Assembly: GCA_937996685.1 (NCBI GenBank)
Contig: CALKUP010000001.1
Coordinates: 181,571-245,570, forward strand
Source of the DNA: an uncultured bacterium
Lineage (GTDB): Bacteria > Patescibacteriota > Patescibacteriia > UBA9570 > XYC2-FULL-38-9
DNA length: 64,000 nt
Direction of reading: 5' to 3'
Position numbers and translations under genes: made by a program. The notes beneath the pieces were generated by a model. It worked only from the letters and a program-made list of their open reading frames with translations, had not been told where the DNA came from and made no database searches. Within the stretch, counting starts at the first letter, position 1. The number at the start of each line of letters is the position of its first letter. This document shows, piece after piece, positions 7,478 to 56,080 of this stretch.

Positions 7478-9064
7478 ATGCAAAACCCAATTCATCAAAT
7501 CGTTCTGCGCGCCATTGACCAAAAAGTCACTGTTGATGCGCAATTAAAAAAAATTAAAGGTGCTGTTGCCAAGGAGTTTGGTATTACTGTTGTTCGCAAT
7601 TCTGAATTGATTCGCGCCTACAAAGAGTTGATTGATTCTGGCGAGGCGCAATTTGATCAAACCATGTGGACGCTGTTTTCAAAGCGCAAAATTCGAAACC
7701 TCAGTGGTGTTGCGGTGATTACCGTTTTGACGAAGCCGTATTTTTGCCCTGGTCGCTGTGTCTATTGCCCAACAGAAGCGCGCATGCCGAAATCGTATTT
7801 GGCGAATGAACCGGGAGCTGCTCGAGCCCTGCGACATGAATTTGATCCATATGATCAAGTGTCAGCGCGTTTGAAATCCCTCGCGGTCAACGGCCATTCA
7901 ACCGATAAATGTGAATTAATCGTTCTTGGTGGAACGTGGACAGTCTACCCAAAGGATTATCAGGAGTGGTTTATTAAACGCTGTTTTGATGCTTTTAACG
8001 AAGATCCAAAAGAGGAAGCTCAAGTTCCGACAAAAGATTTGGATGCCGCGAAAACAAAAAATGAAACAGCACCACATCGGGTGATTGGCTTAACGCTTGA
8101 AACTCGCCCAGATCATGTCACGAAAGATGAAGTGAAGCGTTTACGCTGGCTCGGTTGCACACGCGTGCAAATTGGCGTGCAAACAACTGATCAAACAGTG
8201 CTGGATCTCACAAAACGTGATCAAACAAATGAACAGGTGATTCGGGCAACGCGGCTGTTGAAAGAAGCGGGCCTGAAAATTTCGCATCATTATATGCAGG
8301 CGCTTCCAGGTGCGACAGTGGAATCTGACATTCAAACAATCAAAGATGCGTTTTTGACGCCCGATTATCAACCAGACCATGTGAAAATTTATCCGACCGT
8401 GGTGGTGAAGACTGCGCTGCTCTATCAATGGTGGAAAGAAGGGAAGTACACGCCGTATACCGAGGAAGAGTTGGTCTATTTATTATTAGAAATCAATAAA
8501 CTGTTTCCAGAATGGGTGCGGGTTGAACGCCTGATTCGGGATATTCCGTCTGAATCGATTTTTGCGGGCAACAAAAAAACGAACCTCAGGCAAATTATTG
8601 AAAAGGATGGGCCGATTAGTCGCGATATTCGCGCGCGTGAGCCACATAATGCTGAGCCAGTAACACTCGACGATTTGGATTTGGTGGTGCGTGAATATGA
8701 AGCCTCTGGCGGAACAGAGTATTTTATTTCGTATGAATCGAAAGATCGGAAAACGCTCTACGCGTTCACTCGGTTGCGTTTGCAACAGATCGAAAAACAT
8801 TGGTATGAAGCGTTGCAAGACACGGCGCTGATTCGCGAAGTGCATACCTACGGAAAACTGCAGCCGATTACAAAAGAAGGGGCGCAAGGGGAAGCTGTGC
8901 AACATATTGGCATGGGAACGCGCCTCATTGAAGAAGCAGAGCGCATCGCCCGCGAGCATGGCTACAAGCGTGTCGCGATTATTGCCGGCATTGGCGTGCG
9001 TGAATATTTCAAACAGAAGCTTGGATATCGATTGGAAGACGAGTACATGGTGAAGGATGTGTAA
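7478..9064 (+). CDS. Elp3-like radical SAM / GNAT acetyltransferase (tRNA wobble-uridine modification family)
   Basis: 528 aa; CPGRCVYCP radical-SAM cysteine triad; C-terminal GNAT fold (HIGMGTRLIEEAERIARE). Confidence 0.8.
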   Translation: MQNPIHQIVLRAIDQKVTVDAQLKKIKGAVAKEFGITVVRNSELIRAYKELIDSGEAQFDQTMWTLFSKRKIRNLSGVAVITVLTKPYFCPGRCVYCPTEARMPKSYLANEPGAARALRHEFDPYDQVSARLKSLAVNGHSTDKCELIVLGGTWTVYPKDYQEWFIKRCFDAFNEDPKEEAQVPTKDLDAAKTKNETAPHRVIGLTLETRPDHVTKDEVKRLRWLGCTRVQIGVQTTDQTVLDLTKRDQTNEQVIRATRLLKEAGLKISHHYMQALPGATVESDIQTIKDAFLTPDYQPDHVKIYPTVVVKTALLYQWWKEGKYTPYTEEELVYLLLEINKLFPEWVRVERLIRDIPSESIFAGNKKTNLRQIIEKDGPISRDIRAREPHNAEPVTLDDLDLVVREYEASGGTEYFISYESKDRKTLYAFTRLRLQQIEKHWYEALQDTALIREVHTYGKLQPITKEGAQGEAVQHIGMGTRLIEEAERIAREHGYKRVAIIAGIGVREYFKQKLGYRLEDEYMVKDV

Positions 9065-18160: not shown

Positions 18161-18613
18161 TTACGCAATCAAATCGCTGAATTTCATGACGCGGGTTTGC
18201 TGTGTGTCAGCATCGATTGTAATGATCCATACAATGTGAGGGTGTTTAAAGCCAGTTTGAAAAAAATCAACACATTCGTCACACATTTTGACAAGGCCGT
18301 CGTAGTCACGGTCTGGTCGCATATTTGATAACACAAGAACAGCGACAATATCTTCAAAGGTTCCGTCTGACAGAGCAGCGAGCGCGGCAACCCGTTCTGC
18401 GCAGTAGCGGTGTGGGGTTTCTCCTGGAATGAGTTTCCAGTTTGCGCCTTTATAGAGGTGAGTGCCTCCTGTTTCTGATTGAGTTAACACAGCAGCTCCG
18501 ACCTGACGAGAAGCGTGTTGGGCAAATTGTCGTGCACTGGTTGCAACGGCAAGCATATCAGCGACGTGGGCTTGAATTTGCTCTGGGAGTTGTTGTAATG
18601 CAGTGTTGTCCAT
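18161..18613 (-). CDS. cdd: cytidine deaminase
   Basis: CAER zinc-binding motif and a second PC..C-type motif (MCDECVDFF); 150 aa. Confidence 0.75.
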   Translation of the reverse strand: MDNTALQQLPEQIQAHVADMLAVATSARQFAQHASRQVGAAVLTQSETGGTHLYKGANWKLIPGETPHRYCAERVAALAALSDGTFEDIVAVLVLSNMRPDRDYDGLVKMCDECVDFFQTGFKHPHIVWIITIDADTQQTRVMKFSDLIA

Positions 18614-18756
18614 ATGAAATTTGCAATTGTGTTGATTATACGCAGTTTTTTGCTCGCGTCAATATATTGAATAGAAAAAGGGGCAAATACTACAAAGGCA
18701 CCGATGATTTTCGATGTTTGAAGTATCTACCATGAGCGAGCATCGATGCGGTGATG

Positions 18757-19452
18757 TCAGTCCGACAGCACTTTGTCGATTACCTGCTCAACCCGCTTGA
18801 GACTTGAGGCAACCTGAATGCGGTCGATGTCAGCACGGTCAACCGTGCCGAGCCAGGCCATGACTCGCAAGAGCCATGTGACCGGATACCACATCCGGCC
18901 GACCAGGATGATCGGCTTGTCACGATGCCCATTTACCGCCTGCACATGCTGCAGGAAGTAGGCGACTTCGAGCAAGCTGCCGATGCCGCCCCCCAAGACC
19001 ACGAACGCTGCGCAGAGCTGGAGCATCAGCTCCAGGCGCGAGCCGAAGTCGGGTGCGTGCAGGGTCTCGTCCAGGTGTGGATTCGCGGGCTCGTGAAAGC
19101 CCAGGCAGGTGATCCGGATTCCGACAGACTTCTGCGCCGCTGCATCCCGTCGATTGTTGCAAAATGCTTCCTGGGCAAGGTCGACCATGCCTGGACAACC
19201 GCCGCTAAGCATTGATACCTGACGGCGCGCCAAGAGCTTTCCAAGTGCCTTGGCAAATACGTCACCGTAGAGCCAGTGGAGCCACGGCGCCTTGTCGGAA
19301 TCGCGGGCGCTGCCGAACACGCCGATGAACGGCGCGGCATTTTGCGCCAGCTCACGCGCCAGCGCCTTGGTGGCAGCCGCAAACTCGCCCGCCTCCCGTT
19401 CCCAGCGGACAGAGGAGGTTTCGAGAGCAGGAACGGTGTTGAGGTCGGACAT
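18757..19452 (-). CDS. LOG-family (TIGR00730) nucleotide 5'-monophosphate phosphoribohydrolase/nucleosidase-like protein, on high-GC foreign DNA
   Basis: SGGCPGMVD and VLGGGIGSLLE match the LOG GGGxGxM and PGGxGTxxE motifs; 231 aa; GC about 62% against about 46% for neighbouring genes. Confidence 0.78.
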   Translation of the reverse strand: MSDLNTVPALETSSVRWEREAGEFAAATKALARELAQNAAPFIGVFGSARDSDKAPWLHWLYGDVFAKALGKLLARRQVSMLSGGCPGMVDLAQEAFCNNRRDAAAQKSVGIRITCLGFHEPANPHLDETLHAPDFGSRLELMLQLCAAFVVLGGGIGSLLEVAYFLQHVQAVNGHRDKPIILVGRMWYPVTWLLRVMAWLGTVDRADIDRIQVASSLKRVEQVIDKVLSD

Positions 19453-19830
19453 GGTGTCTCTCCATCTCTGCTTTACTGAAAGCAGTTCTTGTTGTTGATG
19501 ATCACGCTTTCGATATCTCTATCTCAGCGCTTTTTTATCCCTGAATTCAGTATTTCAGGTGCAAAAAAGCCGCTGAGAAAGCGGCTAAGGTGTTGGTTTT
19601 TGGGGACGTTTCACCCCAGTTGCATCGACAGTCTGTTTTTGGGTGTGATATGTAGGATTGTTCATTTTTCGCAATGATTAGCAAAATGCTAGATGAAACC
19701 GGAAGAAATATAGCGTAGATTTGCGCATTTGTCAAGAATGATATTTTAGGTTACAGTCGGTGCCAGAGAAGCGTGAACACGTCCTGTGTTCAGCTGCTTT
19801 TGGACACTTCATTGACCTGCGGAGGGCGTC

Positions 19831-20253
19831 ATGAGTCAACCTATTGTCGATCGCAAGCCTGGCGACTTCAGCTTCATCTACCCGACGGGGATCATTGGTG
19901 AAGAGCTGCCTCGGTTCACCGTTGAAGACAAGGTCTTTCCCATTAAAGCGTTCTTCAACTGGGACATTGGTGCAGCCTGCGTTGCTGGCGCTCAAGGGGG
20001 CTTTCCCTTGGTGCGACCGGTTGACTACGAAGCTGCTGTCGCTGAGTGGCATCGTCGGTTTCCCGGGAAGGCATTGCCGCGGACCTTTGCGGAGCTCGCT
20101 GTTCTTCGTGGTGAGTCTGGTGATCACCGCTGGGGCTTGGCGCGGACACTTCGGAGGAGCGAGGAGAACAAGTCCGTCGGACCACGGAAACCCTCCGGAA
20201 CCGCGCTGCAGCGTTGCAGTTGTAGCGACGAATCGCGACCCTGCATGGAGTGA
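19831..20253 (+). CDS. hypothetical protein (high-GC island), preceded by a GGAGGG ribosome-binding site
   Basis: 140 aa; strong SD 5 nt upstream; a rho-independent terminator follows at 20283-20319. Confidence 0.5.
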   Translation: MSQPIVDRKPGDFSFIYPTGIIGEELPRFTVEDKVFPIKAFFNWDIGAACVAGAQGGFPLVRPVDYEAAVAEWHRRFPGKALPRTFAELAVLRGESGDHRWGLARTLRRSEENKSVGPRKPSGTALQRCSCSDESRPCME

Positions 20254-20282
20254 CCCCGTCTTTACGGATCAAGTCGTTTCGT

Positions 20283-20319
20283 ACCCTGTTTGTTTCGTAC
20301 ACAAGCAGGGTCTTTTTTT
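20283..20319 (+). terminator. rho-independent terminator (ACCCTG...CAGGGT followed by T7)
   Basis: 6-bp GC-rich stem, 17-nt loop and a TTTTTTT tract, directly after the 19831-20253 CDS. Confidence 0.6.
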
Positions 20320-20429
20320 ATCCAATAGATTTTTCAAATAAAAAAAGCCTCACAAATGATTCTATATACGGACTACAAATAGGCTATATATAGAGGTTCG
20401 TGAGGTGCGCCTCTCCGCACAGAGAAGCG

Positions 20430-20687
20430 CTACTTGGTGGCGAGAGGGTCTTCGGCGACCCGCACAATTTCGCAGGCCGCGCTGCCGTCGATCACACAGC
20501 GACCGCGGTTGTTATCTCGCATGAAGTCATCGCCCAATCGCCGAGCGGGTATGTCCCCGTGCTCCGCGAGCTGCCACAGGGCCTCGTGCGCCTGCAGTCC
20601 GAGAGCTGCAGGGTTAAGGAGTCGGACCACAGCCCCAGGGAACTGCTGCCGTGCTTGCCAGACAAGCATGCTCTGATTTTCAGACAT
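20430..20687 (-). CDS. hypothetical small protein (85 aa, high-GC island)
   Basis: GGAGG 5 nt upstream of the ATG (MSENQS...). The ORF track extends further to 20711, but the RBS supports the shorter start. Confidence 0.45.
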   Translation of the reverse strand: MSENQSMLVWQARQQFPGAVVRLLNPAALGLQAHEALWQLAEHGDIPARRLGDDFMRDNNRGRCVIDGSAACEIVRVAEDPLATK

Positions 20688-20835
20688 CTTTCCTCCAAAT
20701 TTGTCCGCCACAGTCGTAGCATACTATGTACTCCCTGGCAAGATAATACCTCTCTTTCAAGTGGATAGCTCCATTGGTTGCAGAGCTCTGGATTTTGACG
20801 TATTCTCAATACAATTCATTATTGAGCTTCTTTTT

Positions 20836-21831
20836 ATGAGTCTTACTCCCAAATCACAACACGACACCGCAGCGATATATGCTATTGATGGCGATTTTCC
20901 AGTTGCACGGTTTATTGCAACAACGCCAGAATCTCGTACTATTTGCAATGATCCATTTGTGCTTGGCGTTGATTATACGGAAAAATTGGAAACAGCCGCA
21001 ACAACCGCACTTGCGCTCTTAAAAGAATCAGGAGAAACAGTCGGTGATGATGAAGAGAAATTGGTTGTGTTAAATATTTTACGCGGTGGGTTGAATTATG
21101 GTCTGCGTAATGCAGTACACCGAGCCTATGGTTGGAATAATCATAGTTCTGCATTTATTTCCTCGCAACGCGCGAAAGATGATAATGGTGATTGGTATAT
21201 TTCGGAAAATCGTTATCAAAAAGTCTACCTTCCGAAAGGCGCACACATTTTGTTTGGTGATGTCGTCGCAACAGGCGTGAGCTTGGAGCATGCTGTTTTG
21301 CGAATTATTGATATTGCAAAAGAACAAGGTGGAAGTATTTCAGGAATGACTTTTTTTACCATTGGTGGCGATCGTTCAGAAGAGATTATGAAAAAAATTG
21401 ACGCAACGTGTCGCGAAGCATTTCCTGATTACACCGGCAGTCGTGTCATTTATTTTGAAGGTGTCTTTGGTGTTGCGACGACTGAAACGCCAATGCGTGT
21501 TGCGCTTGATGGAACAGATTTACTGCACTCACCGGCTTTGATGGCGCCAGAATTTATTGCGTCATCAGCCGAGGCATTATCATTTCCGATCGAGCGGTGC
21601 ACTATTTATGATGCTGGTTCACGTGCGTTTCATATTGCTGAGTACCTTGAAGATGTACATGAATATTGGAGCCAGGTGCTTCAATTTGCGCAAAACGGAG
21701 TAACATATAGCGAATACTTGAAAGAGCGGTTTCCAGAAAGTCCGCAATTACAAGACGCAGCGTTTGTTGAGACGCATAATACTACTGCGATTTTAGAAGA
21801 GGTCGCGACACAGCAGCTCGCCAAAAAATAA
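20836..21831 (+). CDS. phosphoribosyltransferase-domain protein (UPRT-like core) with an approximately 110-aa extra C-terminal domain
   Basis: ILRGGL and LFGDVVATGVSL resemble the uracil PRTase ILRAGL and DPMLATGGS motifs. The start was chosen at the internal ATG (MSLTPKSQ) because the upstream part of the ORF-track frame looks like intergenic read-through. Confidence 0.5.
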   Translation: MSLTPKSQHDTAAIYAIDGDFPVARFIATTPESRTICNDPFVLGVDYTEKLETAATTALALLKESGETVGDDEEKLVVLNILRGGLNYGLRNAVHRAYGWNNHSSAFISSQRAKDDNGDWYISENRYQKVYLPKGAHILFGDVVATGVSLEHAVLRIIDIAKEQGGSISGMTFFTIGGDRSEEIMKKIDATCREAFPDYTGSRVIYFEGVFGVATTETPMRVALDGTDLLHSPALMAPEFIASSAEALSFPIERCTIYDAGSRAFHIAEYLEDVHEYWSQVLQFAQNGVTYSEYLKERFPESPQLQDAAFVETHNTTAILEEVATQQLAKK

Positions 21832-21927: not shown

Positions 21928-23187
21928 ATGTTTAATTATCCTCATATTACCAAAAACGACCCACTGATTGCTGATGCGTTAAAAAATGAATTGCAACGCG
22001 AACAAGATGGTCTCGAAATGATTCCATCAGAAAATTTCGTGTCTTTACCTGTGCTTGAAGCGCTGGGTTCAGTGGCAACAAATAAATATGCTGAAGGGTA
22101 TCCAGGCAAGCGCTATTATGGCGGCTGCGAATATATTGACATTATCGAACAAGCGGCGATTGATCGCGCAAAAGAATTGTTCGGTGCCGAGCACGTGAAT
22201 GTACAACCACTCTCTGGAGCGCCGATGAATATCGCTGTCTATAGTGCGCTGCTTGAGCCGGGTGATACGATTCTTGGCATGGACTTAGGTCACGGTGGTC
22301 ATTTAACACACGGACATCCAGTGACATTTATGTCAAAGGTGTTCAATTTTGTGCGTTATAACTGTGATCCAGAAACTGGTGACATTGATTATGAGCAGGT
22401 ACGCAGACTCGCGCTTGAACACAAACCAAAATTGGTGCTCTGTGGATTTTCGTCATATACCAAGCAACTTGATTATCAAAAATTTGCCGATATTGCGAAA
22501 GAAGTTGGCGCGTATTCGATGATGGATATGGCGCATATTTCAGGGCTCGTTGCGGCAGGTGTATCGCCAAATCCTGTGCCAGTGATGGACGTTGTGACAA
22601 CGACAACGCATAAATCGTTGCGTGGACCACGCGGTGGAATGATTCTTTGTAAAGAAGAGCTCGGGAAAAAAATTGATAAAGCGGTGTTTCCAGGTTTGCA
22701 AGGCGGACCACATGAAAATCAAATTGCTGCACTCGCGATTGCGCTTAAAGAAGCGCTGTCACCAGAATTTAAAGAATATGGCAAACAAGTAATGGCAAAT
22801 GCAAAAGCGCTGTACACAGTATTTGCAGACGCAGGCATTCGCGTTGTGTTTGGTGGAACGGAAAATCATATGTTGGTGTTAGACCTCTCGCCAATTGGGG
22901 TTGCTGGAAAAGATGCTGAAGCAGCACTGGACCATGTCGGCATTACCGTGAATAAACAGATGATTCCAAATGAGCCACGCTCAGCCTTCGATCCATCAGG
23001 TATTCGGCTCGGAACTCCTGCGCTGACAACTCGTGGGATGAAAGAATCAGAAATGACTCGCATTGCGCAGACAATCGTTGATGTGCTTAAGAACATTGAT
23101 GACACGACTGTTCAAGACGCAGCCCGCGCGACAGTCAAAGAATTAACGAAAAACTTCCCGCTGTATGGCTCTGTGGAAACGCGATAA
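21928..23187 (+). CDS. glyA: serine hydroxymethyltransferase
   Basis: SHMT PLP region (TTTTHKSLRGPRGG); start set at MFNYPHI after a TAATACT box. Confidence 0.9.
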   Translation: MFNYPHITKNDPLIADALKNELQREQDGLEMIPSENFVSLPVLEALGSVATNKYAEGYPGKRYYGGCEYIDIIEQAAIDRAKELFGAEHVNVQPLSGAPMNIAVYSALLEPGDTILGMDLGHGGHLTHGHPVTFMSKVFNFVRYNCDPETGDIDYEQVRRLALEHKPKLVLCGFSSYTKQLDYQKFADIAKEVGAYSMMDMAHISGLVAAGVSPNPVPVMDVVTTTTHKSLRGPRGGMILCKEELGKKIDKAVFPGLQGGPHENQIAALAIALKEALSPEFKEYGKQVMANAKALYTVFADAGIRVVFGGTENHMLVLDLSPIGVAGKDAEAALDHVGITVNKQMIPNEPRSAFDPSGIRLGTPALTTRGMKESEMTRIAQTIVDVLKNIDDTTVQDAARATVKELTKNFPLYGSVETR

Positions 23188-25151: not shown

Positions 25152-26696
25152 ATGAAACAGACTCAAGCTACAAAAATCACAAAAGGACTCCGCCGCATTC
25201 CAGCGGTGATGGCAACGCAACATCCGGATAACGCAAATGCACCATATTGGGAAGTGGACGGAGATGGGTTTATTAGCGCACAAGAAGAAGTGCGTGAAGC
25301 GTTTTCTGCCTATAGTGATCTCGGCGTTGATGAGTATATGTGGGATTGGGAAGGAAAATATGTTGATGAAGCGGTGGTTGAGCGACTGTTTTCTGAATAC
25401 ACGGAATTTTTTCAACAGCATGTGTTGGGGCGTGATCGATTTTTGACATTCCGTATTCCAAACATTTGGGAAGAAAAAGGATATTCGCTGGCGCGCGCAT
25501 TTATGGGAATGCTGACCGCCGCGGACATGGCCCATGATTTGAAGATGCCGGCATATCCGTTATTTGAAGTGATTTTGCCGATGACAAAAAATCCAGAGCA
25601 GTTAATGTATTTGCATGATACGTTTCAAAAGCTCGCGAAAGTGAAGCACGAGCTTTTTGCTGGAGACACAGCTGATTTTGACCATATTGAAATGATCCCG
25701 CTAACAGAAAGTGTTCCGGAAATGTTGAATATCCGCGGGTTTTTAGAATCATATGAGCAGTCATATAAAAAAGCGTTTAAAAAACAATTGCGTTATTTGC
25801 GGCCATTTATTGCACGCTCAGATCCAGCGCTTGTTTCAGGAATGCTCGCTGCGGTGATTGGCAATAAAGTGGCGCTTTCTGAAATGGCGCGTTGGTCAAA
25901 AAAATCTGGCGTGCCAATCTATCCAATTATTGGAGCGGGGAGCTTGCCGTTTCGAGGAGGGCTGTCGCCGGAGTATATCGATCAATTTATTAATGAATAC
26001 CAAGGGGTTCGAACTGTGACAATCCAGTCCGCGTTTCGATATGACTATCCATTAAAAACAGTGCGTCGCGCGTTGAAAAAATTACAACAAGAATTACCAA
26101 GCAGTACTCCTCGACTGATTGATGAAGCATCGCTCGCGGTGTTGGGAGTCATTGCCGAGCGGAGTGCGAAATTGTATCGCAAGACAATTGCGGGTATCGC
26201 AGATGATGTGTTGTCACTTTCCAAACATGTTCCGCGAAGACGTGAGCGCAAACTCCATATTGGATTATTAAAATACGGCCGGTCTGTTGCTGGAAAAGAA
26301 TTTCCACGAGCAATTACATTTACAGCGACGCTCTATAGCTTGGGAGTTCCGCCGGAATTGATTGCCGCGGGCCGCACAATTGCAATGTTGTCTGATGCAG
26401 AAAAAGCGGTGTTTGAAAAAACATATATCCATTTTAAAGATGACATGATTCGAGCGGGTCGTTATTTGAATACAGAAAATGTGTTACGGTTGTCCGCGGA
26501 AAATGCTGTGTGGGAACAGATACATGCGGATATTGTTGCGCTTGAAGCCTATCTTGGCGTGACTTTAGGGCCAAAAACAACGACAGAATTACTGCATCGG
26601 AACGCGACATCGGATGTGTATTTACTGATGCAGAAAAATCTACCCATTGCTGACGTATTGCTGCGCGCTGCCACTTTGCGACAATCTCTCGGGTAA
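25152..26696 (+). CDS. phosphoenolpyruvate carboxylase, archaeal-type (PpcA family)
   Basis: About 514 aa, N-terminal IPAVMATQHPDNA signature of archaeal-type PEPC. Confidence 0.75.
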   Translation: MKQTQATKITKGLRRIPAVMATQHPDNANAPYWEVDGDGFISAQEEVREAFSAYSDLGVDEYMWDWEGKYVDEAVVERLFSEYTEFFQQHVLGRDRFLTFRIPNIWEEKGYSLARAFMGMLTAADMAHDLKMPAYPLFEVILPMTKNPEQLMYLHDTFQKLAKVKHELFAGDTADFDHIEMIPLTESVPEMLNIRGFLESYEQSYKKAFKKQLRYLRPFIARSDPALVSGMLAAVIGNKVALSEMARWSKKSGVPIYPIIGAGSLPFRGGLSPEYIDQFINEYQGVRTVTIQSAFRYDYPLKTVRRALKKLQQELPSSTPRLIDEASLAVLGVIAERSAKLYRKTIAGIADDVLSLSKHVPRRRERKLHIGLLKYGRSVAGKEFPRAITFTATLYSLGVPPELIAAGRTIAMLSDAEKAVFEKTYIHFKDDMIRAGRYLNTENVLRLSAENAVWEQIHADIVALEAYLGVTLGPKTTTELLHRNATSDVYLLMQKNLPIADVLLRAATLRQSLG

Positions 26697-37771: not shown

Positions 37772-37961
37772 AAGGAATTCGGCTGAAGCAGGCATATTCA
37801 TACAAAGAAGATAGCGCAGGCAAAAATGCCAGAAGTCGCGACCCTTCAACAGAGATGCACGAAACCGTGTGTCGTATGAATGCTTCAAATAGATGTCCAG
37901 CGGGTTTGCTGGGTGTCTATTGCTGAATGGTCTATCAAAGACCAAAAAAATGGAGTTTCCC

Positions 37962-38828
37962 ATGACTGACATCAAGACCGTGACTCCTGCCACCACCATC
38001 TTCGTTCTCGGGGGTGAGGACGGGGAGATGCGTGCGATTCGCGCTCTCCTCCAGCGGTTTGGATACCGCTGGGTGCAGCCCAACCAGGCGTGGGGTGACC
38101 ACGCCTTCACGCCCGCGCAGTGCGGGCTCAAGGTCGAGTCAAAGGAGTTGTCCCGGCAAGGGCACTCCTACCGGGCCGATCAGATCGACGGCCTTCACCA
38201 GGCTGTCTTCGTTGAGTGCCGCGCTAGCGAGAGCGGCTGGCCGACGGACGGCTGGAGGTCTGTGGTCATCGACCATCACGGCTCCCGCTCGGGAGAGGTG
38301 GCCAGCATCCAGCAGGTCATTGATCTGCTCGGGTTGTGGCCCAGGCTCTCCTCGGCCACCCAGCGCTGGGCGGAGCTGATCGCGGTCAACGACTCGGGGT
38401 GGATCCCTGGGTTGCAGGCCTGGGGTGCCACGCTCGAGGAGATCGAGCGCGTCCGCGGGTTCGACCGAGCCGCGCAGGGCATCACGCCCGTCCACGAGAC
38501 AGAGGTCGAGCGGGCGCTCACCGCGCCAGAGGAGTTGATCGGCGCCATCCGCATTGTCCGGATGAGTCACTCGAAGACCTCTCCGCTCGGGGACAGACTG
38601 GCCCTCACCGCAATGCGCGAGGGACGGGAGGCTCCCTCCTACCTCGCGCTCTCCGGCGATGGGGAGGTGAACTTCTCTGGCGACGGCGCTCTCGCCGCCG
38701 CGCTCGCCACTCGGTTCCAGGGCTGGAGCGGCGGCTCCGGCCTCGGCAAAGCCGGGGAGAAGGCCTTCTGGGGAGGGTATCCCTCCCACGAGGAGGTGCT
38801 TGCGTTCATTCGCGAGCACACCGCTTGA
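37962..38828 (+). CDS. hypothetical protein on a high-GC (about 66%) island, with a GGAG ribosome-binding site
   Basis: 289 aa from MTDIKTV; contains a VVIDHHG motif (weakly DHH-like); strong codon GC3 bias. Confidence 0.5.
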   Translation: MTDIKTVTPATTIFVLGGEDGEMRAIRALLQRFGYRWVQPNQAWGDHAFTPAQCGLKVESKELSRQGHSYRADQIDGLHQAVFVECRASESGWPTDGWRSVVIDHHGSRSGEVASIQQVIDLLGLWPRLSSATQRWAELIAVNDSGWIPGLQAWGATLEEIERVRGFDRAAQGITPVHETEVERALTAPEELIGAIRIVRMSHSKTSPLGDRLALTAMREGREAPSYLALSGDGEVNFSGDGALAAALATRFQGWSGGSGLGKAGEKAFWGGYPSHEEVLAFIREHTA

Positions 38829-45818: not shown

Positions 45819-46037
45819 TAACAGATGATTATCAAGAGGAGGAAAGTGGTAATTATCTGAGAATCAACAGCATTCTCAGCGCACCTTTTGACAATCTAGC
45901 AACGCACAACAGTGTACTCAATTGACCTATTGAATTGAGCTGTGGTGAGAAGAGACGATGACGTGTTTGTTCGCTCTTTTCACCCCGGCTCTTCAATAGA
46001 GCCATTGCCGCGACGAAAGTCGCATTAGGAGGGACAC

Positions 46038-46382
46038 ATGTCCCACACGTCCGCGCCTGCAGCCTACACGACCGAGAACGCTCGCGCGATTCATTACCTT
46101 CGATTGGTGTACTTGATCACCAATCATCCTAATGACTTTGCTGTTCCCGCTTGGAGGCGGGACGCAAAGCACCTCGCGAATCTCCTGAAGCGCAAGCTCC
46201 AGGCTGATGTCAGCGACCCTGAGAGCCTCCGTGTTTGGGGGTTGGGGTTCCTGGGTCACAACACGGTCGATCGGCAGTTCCTGTCGATCTCTGATCGCGC
46301 GGCTCAGCGCTTGTCTCATCCCCGGACGGAATCTCCTCGTCGCGCTCAGGGCAGCCAACGCGTCTCTCTCGCTGATTGCTGA
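46038..46382 (+). CDS. hypothetical protein (114 aa) on a high-GC island, with a GGAGGG ribosome-binding site
   Basis: SD 5 nt upstream of the ATG; the antisense ORF 45993-46436 was rejected. Followed by two hairpins (CGGAGACC/GGTCTCCG and GGCAAC/GTTGCC plus a T-tract). Confidence 0.45.
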   Translation: MSHTSAPAAYTTENARAIHYLRLVYLITNHPNDFAVPAWRRDAKHLANLLKRKLQADVSDPESLRVWGLGFLGHNTVDRQFLSISDRAAQRLSHPRTESPRRAQGSQRVSLADC

Positions 46383-46597
46383 CCTCTCCTCGGAGACCTT
46401 CGGCTTCAACCCCGCGGGTCTCCGGCATGGCAACACCTTTGTGCGTTGCCCATTTTCCGATGAACATAAATTTTGTGTTTATCGGTTGAGTGAAAAATTA
46501 TGTCTATACAATTCCGTTCAATTCAATCTATTGCAAGCCTCATTATTCTTTTGTGGCAGGATTTGTAGTGGATTGATTCTTTTATCAGCATACTGCA

Positions 46598-47683: not shown

Positions 47684-49240
47684 ATGTACACACGGGCAAT
47701 CAAGCCTGACAATCACGTTCTCCTGGGGGAGATCATGACGTCCTTTGATAGCTCTGGTTCTACTGCAACTGTTGCCCTGGCTAAAAATGAAGGCATTGAC
47801 TGGGGTGAATTTAAGCCCCGAAGCCTCGACGAGGTCGCGAAGTTGCTCGGCATTCCGCTGAGTCGCGTGCTCCTCTGTCACCAGTTCGTGAACCATGATC
47901 CGGCGTGGATCATTCGTGAAGCGGACCTTGATGCGTACTTGGTGCGCATGGGCGCGGTTTGGACGCATGGTTTCTGTAGGGGGCAGGTGCTGACAACGCC
48001 GATGCTCCCGGGTGTCGTGCAAGATCATCTGCGCCCCCTTGGCTTCGCTTGTCGGCTCATCGAGAGCGATCGACCTGACTCGAGTCTGCGTCACGGCGAT
48101 GCTTTCCGGTTTGCCGGACACGACAGTGCTCTTGTTCAAGGCTGGGCAGATGACAATCGTGTCCTGCTGGCCAGCTTGGTCAGCCGAGACATGTCTGCAA
48201 GTGGTTTGTCCCGCATTACGCGCGGGGTGAGTCTCATGGTCAACTCCAAGCCGGAAATGCGCCGCGGCGCTGAAAAGTTTGGATTTCGGATGGCACCTGG
48301 TGGTGTCGTTCGGACGCTCGCTGACTGCGAGCGCGTCTGGAGTACTTGCTCCGGTGGCCGCGACGGTGAGGCAGACGGCTTCACCATGTGGTTGAAGGCT
48401 GACGGGAGTGGCTCGGACTTCGTCATTCGAGTGCGTAACCGTTTAGAGCTTCACGTTGCCTGCTTGGAGATGGTCAAGCGCGTGCTCGAGGGTCACGCAA
48501 CCTTGCCGTCTCAATGCAGAAGAGAAGTGAACGGAACTGTAATTCGCGGTTGGCGGGACGTACTTGAACGTGAAGGCCCCTTGCCAGAGGGCTTGGGATT
48601 TCCGATCCCGTTTGTCCTTGAAACGGATGCGACCGTGCTCGGCGAATTAGTCGCTAGCATCTGCTGGCAGGCGTTGATCTGTCTAGACGGTACGACCCGT
48701 GTTGTTGGGCACTCGGATCAGATCTTGTCGCCCGACGGATCGGAATGGTGGGGTTCCAAGCGCTCCTCGCTTGAACTTCCACCAGACTTCCGTGATCAGG
48801 CCGAACGGCTCGTGAAGTGGTATCGCCACTGCGGCTACACCGGCTTCATCGGGCCGGACGCGATCATCGTTCGTAATCGTGAGACCCAGGAACTCCAGAC
48901 GATCTGGATCGACCCGAACGGTCGGGCAGCCATGAGCACGACGGCTTTCATGGTTAGCAACGCGCTGTTTGACGGCGAGGGTGGGTGGATCAACACCAAC
49001 CTCACTTTGAGTGAGCCGCTGCAGAACTACACCCAGCTCCGCCAGCTCATCGGCGGAACGCTCCTCGACCCCGGCGGGGAAGACGGCGTTCAGGGTGTGG
49101 TTCTCGCGACCCGCACTGAGCCGGGCGAGCCCAGTCCGGTTCTCAAGCTGTGGTTCGGAAGTCGAGACGGCAACGGACTCGCGGCCTGCGAGGCGATGCT
49201 CGCCAAGCTCCAAGTCCGTGGAGTCAAGATCGGCAGCTAA
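47684..49240 (+). CDS. hypothetical protein with an ATP-grasp-like C-terminal half (high-GC island)
   Basis: 518 aa. The C-terminal GFIGPDAIIVRNRETQELQTIWIDPNGRAAMSTTAFMV parallels the ATP-grasp Mg/ATP-binding region (compare carB FNIQF...VIELNLRASRS in this window). The N-terminal approximately 200 aa are unassigned. RBS-like AGAGGAA upstream. Confidence 0.45.
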   Translation: MYTRAIKPDNHVLLGEIMTSFDSSGSTATVALAKNEGIDWGEFKPRSLDEVAKLLGIPLSRVLLCHQFVNHDPAWIIREADLDAYLVRMGAVWTHGFCRGQVLTTPMLPGVVQDHLRPLGFACRLIESDRPDSSLRHGDAFRFAGHDSALVQGWADDNRVLLASLVSRDMSASGLSRITRGVSLMVNSKPEMRRGAEKFGFRMAPGGVVRTLADCERVWSTCSGGRDGEADGFTMWLKADGSGSDFVIRVRNRLELHVACLEMVKRVLEGHATLPSQCRREVNGTVIRGWRDVLEREGPLPEGLGFPIPFVLETDATVLGELVASICWQALICLDGTTRVVGHSDQILSPDGSEWWGSKRSSLELPPDFRDQAERLVKWYRHCGYTGFIGPDAIIVRNRETQELQTIWIDPNGRAAMSTTAFMVSNALFDGEGGWINTNLTLSEPLQNYTQLRQLIGGTLLDPGGEDGVQGVVLATRTEPGEPSPVLKLWFGSRDGNGLAACEAMLAKLQVRGVKIGS

Positions 49241-51208: not shown

Positions 51209-51283
51209 GCGGGTATCGTATAGTGGCTATTACGCGGCCTTCCCAAGGCTGAAAGAGGAGTTCGATTCTCCTTACCCGCTCCA
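51209..51283 (+). tRNA. tRNA-Gly (anticodon CCC) with genomically encoded CCA
   Basis: Manual fold: acceptor GCGGGTA/TACCCGC, anticodon stem CGGCC/GGCTG, loop TTCCCAA, T-arm AGGAG-TTCGATT-CTCCT, discriminator U, 3' CCA. Confidence 0.8.
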
Positions 51284-54841: not shown

Positions 54842-55079
54842 CCTCAATTCCACAATTTGTTTGATGCAGATATTTGACGTTGACTTTATTTTATACGGGT
54901 GATACGTTATTGTGTCGCTGATTCTTTTAATTCAGTGCTCTTTTTATCGATCGTTGAGGAAATAAGTCGCTTTCAATATGTGTAAAGGCGTTTTATTCCC
55001 TCAGCGGTCATTCATCGTTATCAATGAGATCAAGTCACATTAATCGTTTGCTGAGGGGCATGCGATTTTGGGAGGATTC

Positions 55080-55484
55080 ATGGAAGACGGACAGTTCGGA
55101 ACTCCTCGTGAACATGCAACGTTCATGGGCATCACCATGGGCTACTGGATCTTCATCATCGCGCTTCTCCTCGGAGGCAGCGCGGTGGTGATGGTGACCA
55201 AGCCGGTCTTCCTCGGCTTCGAGCGGGAGATCTATACCAACTCACGTCAGTACACCGATGCGAAGGACGTGCAACTCCTCGCCTGGATCGCCGAGTACTC
55301 GGAGCTCGTCACGGAGAAGGCGAGGCTCGAGGCGCAGACGGACGTCGACAACACGACTGTGATTGACGGCATCGACAGCCAGATGCACTTCATGCTCGGT
55401 CGTATCCATGCCGAGGCTGCTCGCGTGTCTCCCGAAGCGCTTTCTTCCACGGTTCGCGAATTCCTCGCGCGCCACAATCTCTGA
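55080..55484 (+). CDS. hypothetical membrane-anchored protein (high-GC island), with a GGGAGGA ribosome-binding site
   Basis: 134 aa from MEDGQF; one TM helix (ITMGYWIFIIALLLGGSAVVMV); acidic C-terminal domain. Confidence 0.5.
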   Translation: MEDGQFGTPREHATFMGITMGYWIFIIALLLGGSAVVMVTKPVFLGFEREIYTNSRQYTDAKDVQLLAWIAEYSELVTEKARLEAQTDVDNTTVIDGIDSQMHFMLGRIHAEAARVSPEALSSTVREFLARHNL

Positions 55485-55495
55485 AGGAGGTGAAC

Positions 55496-56080
55496 ATGAA
55501 CAAGGCTTTCCTTCGTTTGGCAGCGCTGCTCCTGATGGCGTTGCTGTTCTTCACTGGCACTGGTTGCGACCAAAGCTCGGAAGAGCGCGACCGCGCAGTC
55601 GTTCAAGACCAGCAGAAGCAGTATGGAATTGCGCAGCCGATCCCGAGCTATGATTGGTCCCCGGAACGGGACAACGTGATCCAGCTCTACGACATCCGTA
55701 TGGGAATTGTCGCCACCCACGCCGTTTGGCGAGGCGACACGTCGATCGTTGAAGGCGACTGTCCGGCGATCGGATATCCGATTCCGTACGACACCCAGCT
55801 CACCAACCCGCTGCAAGTGCTGCCTGACAGTGGCCACGAGGTGGTTGAGCAGGCGGAACCGAACGGCTTGTTCTCTTCAAAAAACAGCACGGGCACGTGG
55901 GTGCTGTGTGTTGAGGGCAAGGCAATCGAACCTGTCCTTGTCGAGGGCAAGGTGACGACCTACCCGTATCCGGTGGTTGTCGATTACACAACCAATCGAG
56001 TCACCCGTGCCGTTGGAGGTCGCTCTTCGGTCAAGTTGAAGGTCAATGACAAGCCGCCTTCTCAGCGGAGCAAGCCTTGA
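55496..56080 (+). CDS. hypothetical lipoprotein (high-GC island), with an AAGGAGGTG ribosome-binding site
   Basis: Signal peptide with lipobox LFFTGTGC; 194 aa. Confidence 0.5.
   Translation: MNKAFLRLAALLLMALLFFTGTGCDQSSEERDRAVVQDQQKQYGIAQPIPSYDWSPERDNVIQLYDIRMGIVATHAVWRGDTSIVEGDCPAIGYPIPYDTQLTNPLQVLPDSGHEVVEQAEPNGLFSSKNSTGTWVLCVEGKAIEPVLVEGKVTTYPYPVVVDYTTNRVTRAVGGRSSVKLKVNDKPPSQRSKP

Follow-up and report, generated by a model that had tools for sequence, protein, structure and literature searches.

Type-II (hexameric) LOG proteins, represented by Cg1261/CgLOGII of Corynebacterium glutamicum (5WQ3) and TT1465 of Thermus (1WEK), are the best sequence matches among solved structures for the protein described here, which is encoded by a LOG-like open reading frame (ORF). 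This ORF lies with two small ORFs, orf140 and orf85, at positions 18740-20720 of a 64,000-nucleotide stretch of DNA (hereafter, the window) from an uncultured bacterium of the Patescibacteriota (contig CALKUP010000001.1). In CgLOGII, the catalytic residues are Arg155 and Glu178, within or near the PGGFGTLDE motif, and Asp177 touches the adenine ring (PMC5379747). With the type-II enzymes, the window LOG has in common the N-terminal FGSAR motif, both catalytic residues (Arg and Glu), the nucleotide-binding motifs rich in glycine, though in degenerate form, and an additional N-terminal segment of about 40 residues located where type-II LOGs have their hexamerising helix (PMC5379747). In contrast, overall identity is about 30%, and GGGPGxME reads SGGCPGMVD, PGGFGTLDE reads GGGIGSLLE and Arg-Lys reads Arg-Leu in the window protein.

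PpnN (YgdH) of Escherichia coli, a pyrimidine/purine nucleoside 5'-monophosphate (NMP) nucleosidase stimulated by (p)ppGpp, has the same catalytic LOG core (6gfl and 9hs1; about 32 bits over residues 65-185). The chemistry is likely the same, with NMP cleaved to base and ribose-5-phosphate in the control of nucleotide pools. However, PpnN is a protein of about 454 amino acids (aa) with flanking regulatory domains, whereas the window LOG has 231 aa and is not its orthologue. Cyanophages also encode LOG-like proteins (PHROG 23875; S-CAM7, S-B68 and S-CRES3) that consist of a stand-alone LOG fold of about 200 aa. The window LOG matches this family with 67.9 bits and is 31-37% identical to the cyanophage proteins, but these are no closer than cellular homologues and there are no phage genes near the window LOG.

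The genomic setting also has described counterparts. Gene-by-gene horizontal transfer is reported to be frequent in Patescibacteria, mostly within the group, and to amount to up to 13% of genome length (PMC12455944). As in such accessory-gene hotspots (PMC12455944), the window is variable between an ELP3-like gene (7478-9064) and glyA (21937-23187), with compositionally atypical singletons and many orphans. Two differences stand out. First, acquired DNA is usually AT-richer than the host and drifts to host composition, whereas the window genes are much GC-richer. Second, the GC boundary in the window tracks the ends of ORFs, and the homologue in the corresponding position is GC-rich beyond synonymous saturation. 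Our preferred reading, which we hold with moderate confidence, is that LOG, orf140 and orf85 are three independent, compositionally atypical accessory genes within this hypervariable segment, and that LOG is a functional NMP hydrolase. The locus adds a divergent LOG to a known enzyme family, together with two lineage-restricted ORFs, the compositional pattern being its most unusual aspect.

We used as native baseline 42 long native ORFs of the window (GC at third codon positions, GC3, 0.391; standard deviation 0.047; the window is about 46% GC overall). Measured against these native genes, the three ORFs are as follows.

18757-19452, minus strand: LOG-like ORF, 231 aa, GC 0.619, GC3 0.741 (z = 7.4)
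19831-20253, plus strand: orf140, 140 aa, GC 0.589, GC3 0.617 (z = 4.8)
20430-20687, minus strand: orf85, 85 aa, GC 0.624, GC3 0.698 (z = 6.5)

All three encode Ala/Arg-rich, Lys-poor proteins, and the GC-rich DNA of the region is restricted to them, the GC boundaries coinciding with ORF ends. The entire 1.98-kb span is 55.9% GC and its four spacers are 38.5-43.9% GC. The original prediction is thus right about a strongly atypical composition, but these are three GC-rich ORFs and not one block of about 62% GC. An assembly chimera was ruled out, as the GC junctions are spanned by short contigs from four independent assemblies (L001 and L003-L005).

The assignment of LOG to its family is clear. 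The protein matches PF03641 (SLOG superfamily) over residues 104-221 with 55.7 bits against a gathering score of 27, as anticipated in the original prediction, and also passes PF18306 (28.3 against 26.3 bits). Its closest solved relatives by sequence are type-II LOGs (5wq3, 9us2, 5zi9 and 1wek), followed by PpnN cores and then by type-I LOGs. In the alignments with these PDB matches, R139 and E162 correspond to the catalytic Arg155 and Glu178 of CgLOGII, and both residues are invariant in an alignment of 15 homologues (A3). However, the protein is not the canonical LOG it had been taken for: its motifs, SGGCPGM and GGGIGSLLE, are degenerate compared with the canonical forms. In the second motif, the PGGxGTxxE position carries P-to-G and T-to-S changes (the homologue from the L087 locus described below reads PGGLGSLLE), the residue preceding the catalytic Glu, which is the adenine-contacting Asp of type-II LOGs, is a Leu. 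The catalytic Arg is followed by Leu instead of Lys. Since the adenine-contacting Asp is replaced, base preference probably differs from that of cytokinin/AMP-type LOGs. Comparison with the copy of a 92%-identical strain (L005) gave a synonymous divergence (dS) of 0.16 and a ratio of nonsynonymous to synonymous divergence (dN/dS) of 0.13 over 199 codons, which indicates that LOG is under purifying selection. We regard it as a genuine, divergent type-II LOG/TIGR00730-like SLOG enzyme.

In a search among 5.8 billion proteins, the nearest homologue of LOG reached at most 44% identity. The window protein and its five nearest homologues (together P0001-P0006) have in common the signature FxxRL plus GGIG[ST]LLE, which defines a LOG subfamily. 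Two members (P0003 and P0004) are encoded on the same strand and 12 nucleotides (nt) after XFP-TAL-PGI-TKT genes (L093 1-6915; L099 1-6954). Each is the final gene of such an operon, in which XFP stands for phosphoketolase, and both proteins have Lys-rich C-terminal tails. A third (P0005) follows an RNB-family exoribonuclease gene after a 15-nt gap, with a DUF3047 gene on its other side (L095 4504-7300). The genes for all three are native in composition. Both kinds of context fit a role in converting NMP to ribose-5-phosphate. Together with the neighbours of LOG in the window (cdd-like, UPRT-like, prs, pyrE, glyA and folD), they lead us to infer NMP cleavage, so that LOG is most likely an NMP phosphoribohydrolase in nucleotide salvage or ribose recovery. 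The enzyme would hydrolyse the N-glycosidic bond of nucleoside 5'-monophosphates and so supply free base and ribose-5-phosphate to Prs, to phosphoribosyltransferases and to the pentose-phosphate pathway. The nucleotide-metabolism role proposed originally thus stays the most sensible reading of the gene. What is new is a divergent LOG subfamily (Arg-Leu, GGIGSLLE, loss of the adenine-contacting Asp) found beside pentose-phosphate, RNA-degradation or pyrimidine genes, contexts that point to NMP cleavage as a way in which scavenging bacteria with small genomes regain ribose-5-phosphate and bases.

The two small ORFs, each said in the original prediction to carry a Shine-Dalgarno sequence, indeed do so (GGAGGG for orf140 and GGAGG, followed by an ATG start, for orf85; an alternative GTG start at 20711 would extend the latter to 93 aa). 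Neither matched Pfam, NCBIfam, PADLOC or PHROG, and tblastn against plasmid and phage collections found nothing. A word-indexed search of the 5.8 billion proteins returned a single homologue of orf140, its copy in L005 (P0103), which is 87% identical across the first 106 residues. In the core of orf140 (codons 1-105, 19831-20145), third codon positions account for 20 of the 37 nucleotide differences between the two strains, with a dN/dS of 0.26, while the antisense frame that shares these third positions contains 5 stops; together these data indicate that the plus-strand frame is the coding one. After codon 105, L005 has a 2-nt indel and a 21-nt insertion that put the tail in a different reading frame. 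We consider orf140 to be a young, lineage-restricted gene. Within its 3' part, 60 nt (20146-20205) are 100% identical to L005 despite the different frame in the two strains, which suggests a constraint at the nucleotide or RNA level instead of the protein level; the stretch can form nested hairpins, with a modest fold z-score of -1.6.

For orf85, an exhaustive HMMER search of 1.84 billion representative proteins returned the query alone. Its GC at the three codon positions (0.73/0.44/0.70) is coding-like, and the antisense frame gives the mirror-image pattern. Its core is also free of stops in one plus-strand frame, and three more frames are interrupted by a single stop each. Since GC-rich DNA is expected to contain long ORFs by chance, length by itself does not argue for a gene, and orf85 is best described as an orphan ORF and an unverified, putative gene. 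The structure predictions proposed for both proteins were run, but the AlphaFold models were unusable (predicted local distance difference test, pLDDT, 36.4 for orf140 and 47.8 for orf85). Neither small ORF shows a link to LOG function, and the three genes do not behave as the co-occurring module once suggested: orf85 is without relatives, orf140 recurs in one 92%-identical strain, and a related LOG locus has neither. Conservation of the companion ORFs was thus found in no other lineage, an outcome that the original prediction had named as one that would refute it.

These properties also bear on the possibility that both small ORFs are chance ORFs in GC-rich remnant DNA, that is, decaying fragments of acquired genes among which LOG alone is functional. 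Several open frames in the GC-rich stretches, the isolation of orf85, the frame-shifted tail of orf140 and the low pLDDT values would all fit such decay. However, the third-position bias and the dN/dS of the orf140 core apply to exactly the frame set by its Shine-Dalgarno sequence and ATG, which is then followed by a strong terminator, and orf85 combines a strong Shine-Dalgarno sequence and ATG with a coding-like codon-position pattern. We judge the chance-ORF explanation unlikely, although it survives better than any other alternative to three independent accessory genes.

The DNA around the ORFs contains the following predicted signals, identified by consensus, terminator and repeat scans.

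19453-19830, between the divergent LOG and orf140: putative regulatory spacer, GC 0.439
19561-19586, minus strand: intrinsic-terminator-like hairpin followed by a T-run
19707-19735, minus strand: predicted near-consensus sigma-70-type promoter directed toward LOG, TTGACA-17-TATATT, matching 11 of 12 consensus positions
19729-19757, plus strand: predicted promoter whose -35 box lies back-to-back with that of the minus-strand promoter
19774-19792, plus strand: perfect inverted repeat TGAACAC-N5-GTGTTCA in the 5' region of orf140, a candidate operator or hairpin
20283-20320, plus strand: intrinsic terminator after orf140, an 11-bp stem and then a T-run

The LOG-orf140 spacer differs from L005 at 3.2% of positions, and at 2.2% within 19561-19740. 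The ORFs on either side have a dS of 0.16-0.30, and the non-coding stretch beyond orf140 (20254-20347) has diverged by 14%. The spacer is thus less diverged than both, which argues that it is under constraint. Both arms of the inverted repeat are identical in L005, the sole change lying in the loop. The hairpin at 19561-19586 follows the minus-strand promoter by about 115-135 nt and precedes the LOG start by 110 nt. Promoter and hairpin delimit a unit of about 130 nt, a candidate attenuator leader or small RNA. Its fold z-score is modest (-2.4), the comparison involves two near-identical sequences, and the L087 homologue of LOG has no comparable leader. A covariance search with Rfam 15 of the window and of the 2.5-kb region gave no match above gathering score in the region (chance-level hits, E of at least 2), the sole match in the window being a tRNA at 51209. 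We also weighed a 26-codon leader peptide in the spacer but dismissed it, since it lacks a Shine-Dalgarno sequence and its two differences from L005 are both non-synonymous.

A scan of metagenomes with the LOG alignment recovered a second locus, L087 (overlapping L002 and L086), with the order glyA (5' end), LOG, orf121 and ELP3. The window has ELP3 on the plus strand, LOG on the minus strand and glyA on the plus strand, and the relative orientations in L087 are the same. In L087, the pyr operon, cdd, orf140, orf85 and the UPRT-like gene are all missing between glyA and ELP3, so that the element differing between the two loci is the set of neighbour genes. Amino-acid identity between window and L087 is 73% for ELP3, 75% for glyA and 44% for LOG. 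The L087 LOG is also GC-rich (GC 0.61, GC3 0.68) among neighbour genes with GC3 of 0.30-0.44, and the native genes of the two genomes have reached saturation at synonymous sites (proportion of synonymous differences 0.78-0.87). As the same LOG-glyA pairing is found in L087, still GC-rich and without the neighbours seen in the window, the GC-richness of LOG is not the scar of a fresh insertion. Judging from these two gene orders, the pairing would either be older than its present neighbours or have arisen recurrently. The saturation of native synonymous sites also led us to reject a single ancestral acquisition whose drift to host composition is still incomplete.

The data thus do not support an insertion of LOG into a pyrimidine neighbourhood, as first proposed, since a GC-rich homologue sits between the same ELP3 and glyA in a genome with no pyr operon there. 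A LOG homologue of native composition at this position, which the original prediction had named as a second refuting outcome, was not found in relatives; the GC-rich L087 homologue argues against one recent insertion without making the gene compositionally native. With three independent accessory genes, the GC-rich ORFs would have arrived one by one from a GC-richer gene pool and not as one cassette. LOG would be the longest-standing or a recurrent occupant of an ELP3-glyA segment that, from the loci compared, is hypervariable, with the pyr operon and the cdd-like, orf140, orf85 and UPRT-like genes as variable neighbours. More generally, a "foreign GC" signal can mislead on both the timing and the unit of transfer, which here would be gene by gene, recurrent at the same locus and flanked by native spacers.

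Several observations weigh against this reading. First, the same gene at the same locus despite saturation is awkward for a single old acquisition, which should have drifted to host composition, and its presence in two lineages is awkward for independent gains, which require a coincidence of site and orientation. Second, no donor with more than 44% identity to LOG was found among the 5.8 billion proteins, which is awkward for a recent acquisition. Third, the locus comparison covers three related loci. In L006, the nearest relative with a comparable glyA (91-93% identical), there is no LOG in the 5.2 kb upstream of glyA, where different genes are found. Taxonomic signals are mixed too, as this closest genome, a metagenome-assembled genome from Lake Mendota, is labelled Bdellovibrionales while others point toward Patescibacteria. 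Fourth, in the HMM check that had been proposed for LOG, the protein reached 51.4 bits against the TIGR00730 (NCBIfam) cut-off of 96.35, although it passes PF03641. Finally, the P-to-G and T-to-S changes and the loss of the Asp could mean an unusual substrate or reduced activity of the putative NMP phosphoribohydrolase.

L006 has a GC-rich ORF of its own (376-1236, 286 aa, GC 0.59, GC3 0.63, with neighbours at GC3 0.31-0.36). This ORF, in which a HAD-like DxDGT motif is visible by eye, is located 4 kb upstream of glyA, and its gene context is unrelated to that of the window.

GC-rich genes are not confined to the LOG region. The window has at least five islands of GC-rich DNA as sharply delimited by ORFs, together 8.3% of its length with LOG, orf140 and orf85 counted in, among them the following.

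37893-38828, plus strand: DHH-like ORF, the most GC-rich of the window (GC 0.656, GC3 0.82)
45993-46436, 47684-49240, 55068-55484 and 55490-56080: further GC-rich genes, GC3 0.66-0.76, no Pfam domain

The DHH-like ORF has no Pfam match, but it matches the PADLOC models C3a116 (123 bits) and DHH_CorA, the latter describing a CorA-associated DHH hydrolase of type III CRISPR systems. Homologues of named source are few and all from Patescibacteria (Parcubacteria, Daviesbacteria and Shapirobacteria), and the family as a whole reaches at most 54% identity. In 4 of the 5 other contexts examined, the gene is GC-richer than its host genome, for instance 0.547 against 0.41 in L091 (6001-6867), 0.521 against 0.38 in L097 (5001-5792) and 0.62 against 0.56 in L089 (5198-6013), the exception being L098 (5001-5888). 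The family thus appears to carry its own higher GC through different genomes.

This behaviour bears on a second alternative, in which LOG has been inherited vertically at this position since before the two lineages split, its GC-richness being maintained by codon or mRNA selection or by a gene-targeted process, so that it would belong to a persistent compositional class and not to foreign DNA. Several of the observations above speak for it: the homologues share position and orientation and have GC3 of 0.68 and 0.74 despite saturated native synonymous sites, GC boundaries track ORF ends, an unrelated family (DHH-like) is repeatedly GC-richer than its hosts, and a donor is not known. However, no known mechanism keeps GC3 about 0.35 above the genome equilibrium in ordinary enzymes, and other members of the LOG subfamily are native in composition. 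Moreover, the 44% identity of LOG, compared with about 74% for the housekeeping proteins, fits xenologues as well as fast evolution, and the comparison covers two lineages. Maintained GC-richness of LOG is in our view a rather doubtful explanation, and its wider form, a class of ordinary genes (LOG, the DHH-like ORF and others) held at GC3 0.6-0.8 in genomes of 40-46% GC beyond synonymous saturation by gene-specific selection or a targeted process, is slightly more doubtful still. If it were true that GC-richness is maintained and not re-imported, the use of compositional outliers to call horizontal transfer would need revising.

The third alternative is the one originally proposed, namely that a single recent event of horizontal transfer brought in a GC-rich cassette of three genes and, with it, added nucleotide-salvage capacity. 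The ORFs do share their GC3 deviation (z of 4.8-7.4) and their Ala/Arg-rich, Lys-poor proteins, and they are adjacent, amid nucleotide-metabolism genes. They form, nonetheless, separate units oriented minus, plus and minus, each with predicted signals (promoters, terminators) of its own. The intervening spacers are native-like (39-44% GC), and one of them is more conserved than the ORFs. The repeat search found no flanking repeats and no cassette boundaries (integrase genes were not searched exhaustively), and there is no phage or plasmid signal in the region, a scan of viral contigs with LOG having found no close relative. Moreover, the related LOG locus is without both companions, the companions have no homologues beyond the near-identical strain, and no donor was found. 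We consider the cassette improbable.

Least probable of all, to the point that we set it aside, is a nucleotide-derived signalling or anti-phage module, also suggested originally, whose SLOG/LOG protein would sense or degrade a signal, the small proteins being its partners: SLOG domains do occur in defence systems, cyanophages do have LOG-like genes and the DHH-like ORF does match PADLOC models, but neither LOG, orf140 nor orf85 matched PADLOC-DB 2.0 (E up to 0.1), no cyclase, TIR, nuclease or effector gene adjoins them, LOG stands alone as a protein and resembles the metabolic LOGs in its catalytic residues, the companions are not conserved, and subfamily relatives lie in pentose-phosphate or RNA-degradation operons.

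The distance from PpnN is also seen in the equivalog model NF038390, against which the 231-aa window protein scored 34.3 bits (cut-off 450), through its core alone.

Returning to the neighbourhood, the car and pyr genes (carA, carB, pyrB, pyrC, pyrD, pyrF and pyrE) lie directly upstream of the region, in agreement with the order carAB-pyrBCDFE given originally, and glyA and folD lie downstream. The flanking genes are as follows.

7478-9064, plus strand: ELP3-like radical-SAM/acetyltransferase gene, directly upstream of carA
18161-18613, minus strand: divergent cytidine-deaminase-like (cdd-like) gene, native flank, with its own promoter predicted at 18662-18635
20836-21831, plus strand: phosphoribosyltransferase/uracil phosphoribosyltransferase (UPRT)-like gene, native flank (GC3 0.325), weak assignment
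21937-23187, plus strand: glyA, the downstream boundary of the ELP3-glyA segment

The genes that the original prediction named as flanks, cdd and a UPRT-like gene, are in place, but their labels come from sub-threshold Pfam matches. The cdd-like protein scored 17.3 bits against PF00383 (cut-off 25), with weak PDB matches to cytidine deaminases and with CAE and CxxC motifs visible by eye. The UPRT-like protein scored 16.3 bits against PF14681 (cut-off 27); it had no sequence match in PDB and, used as a query in the genome-contig scan, found no relatives.

A few further observations were made along the window. No CRISPR or CorA genes were noticed near the DHH-like ORF. Beyond folD, a prs-like ORF is followed by an archaeal-type PEP-carboxylase-like ORF (25152-26696), both named by eye from their translations. 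The next-best matches of the window glyA are from Falkowbacteria, Moranbacteria and Peregrinibacteria, at 62-64%. Among the GC-rich genes between 45993 and 56080, a 196-aa ORF matches phrog_24725 (function unknown) and has, as read by eye, a hydrophobic, signal-peptide-like N-terminus that contains a Cys, and a 518-aa ORF recurs, with at least 90% identity, on another short NCBI contig.

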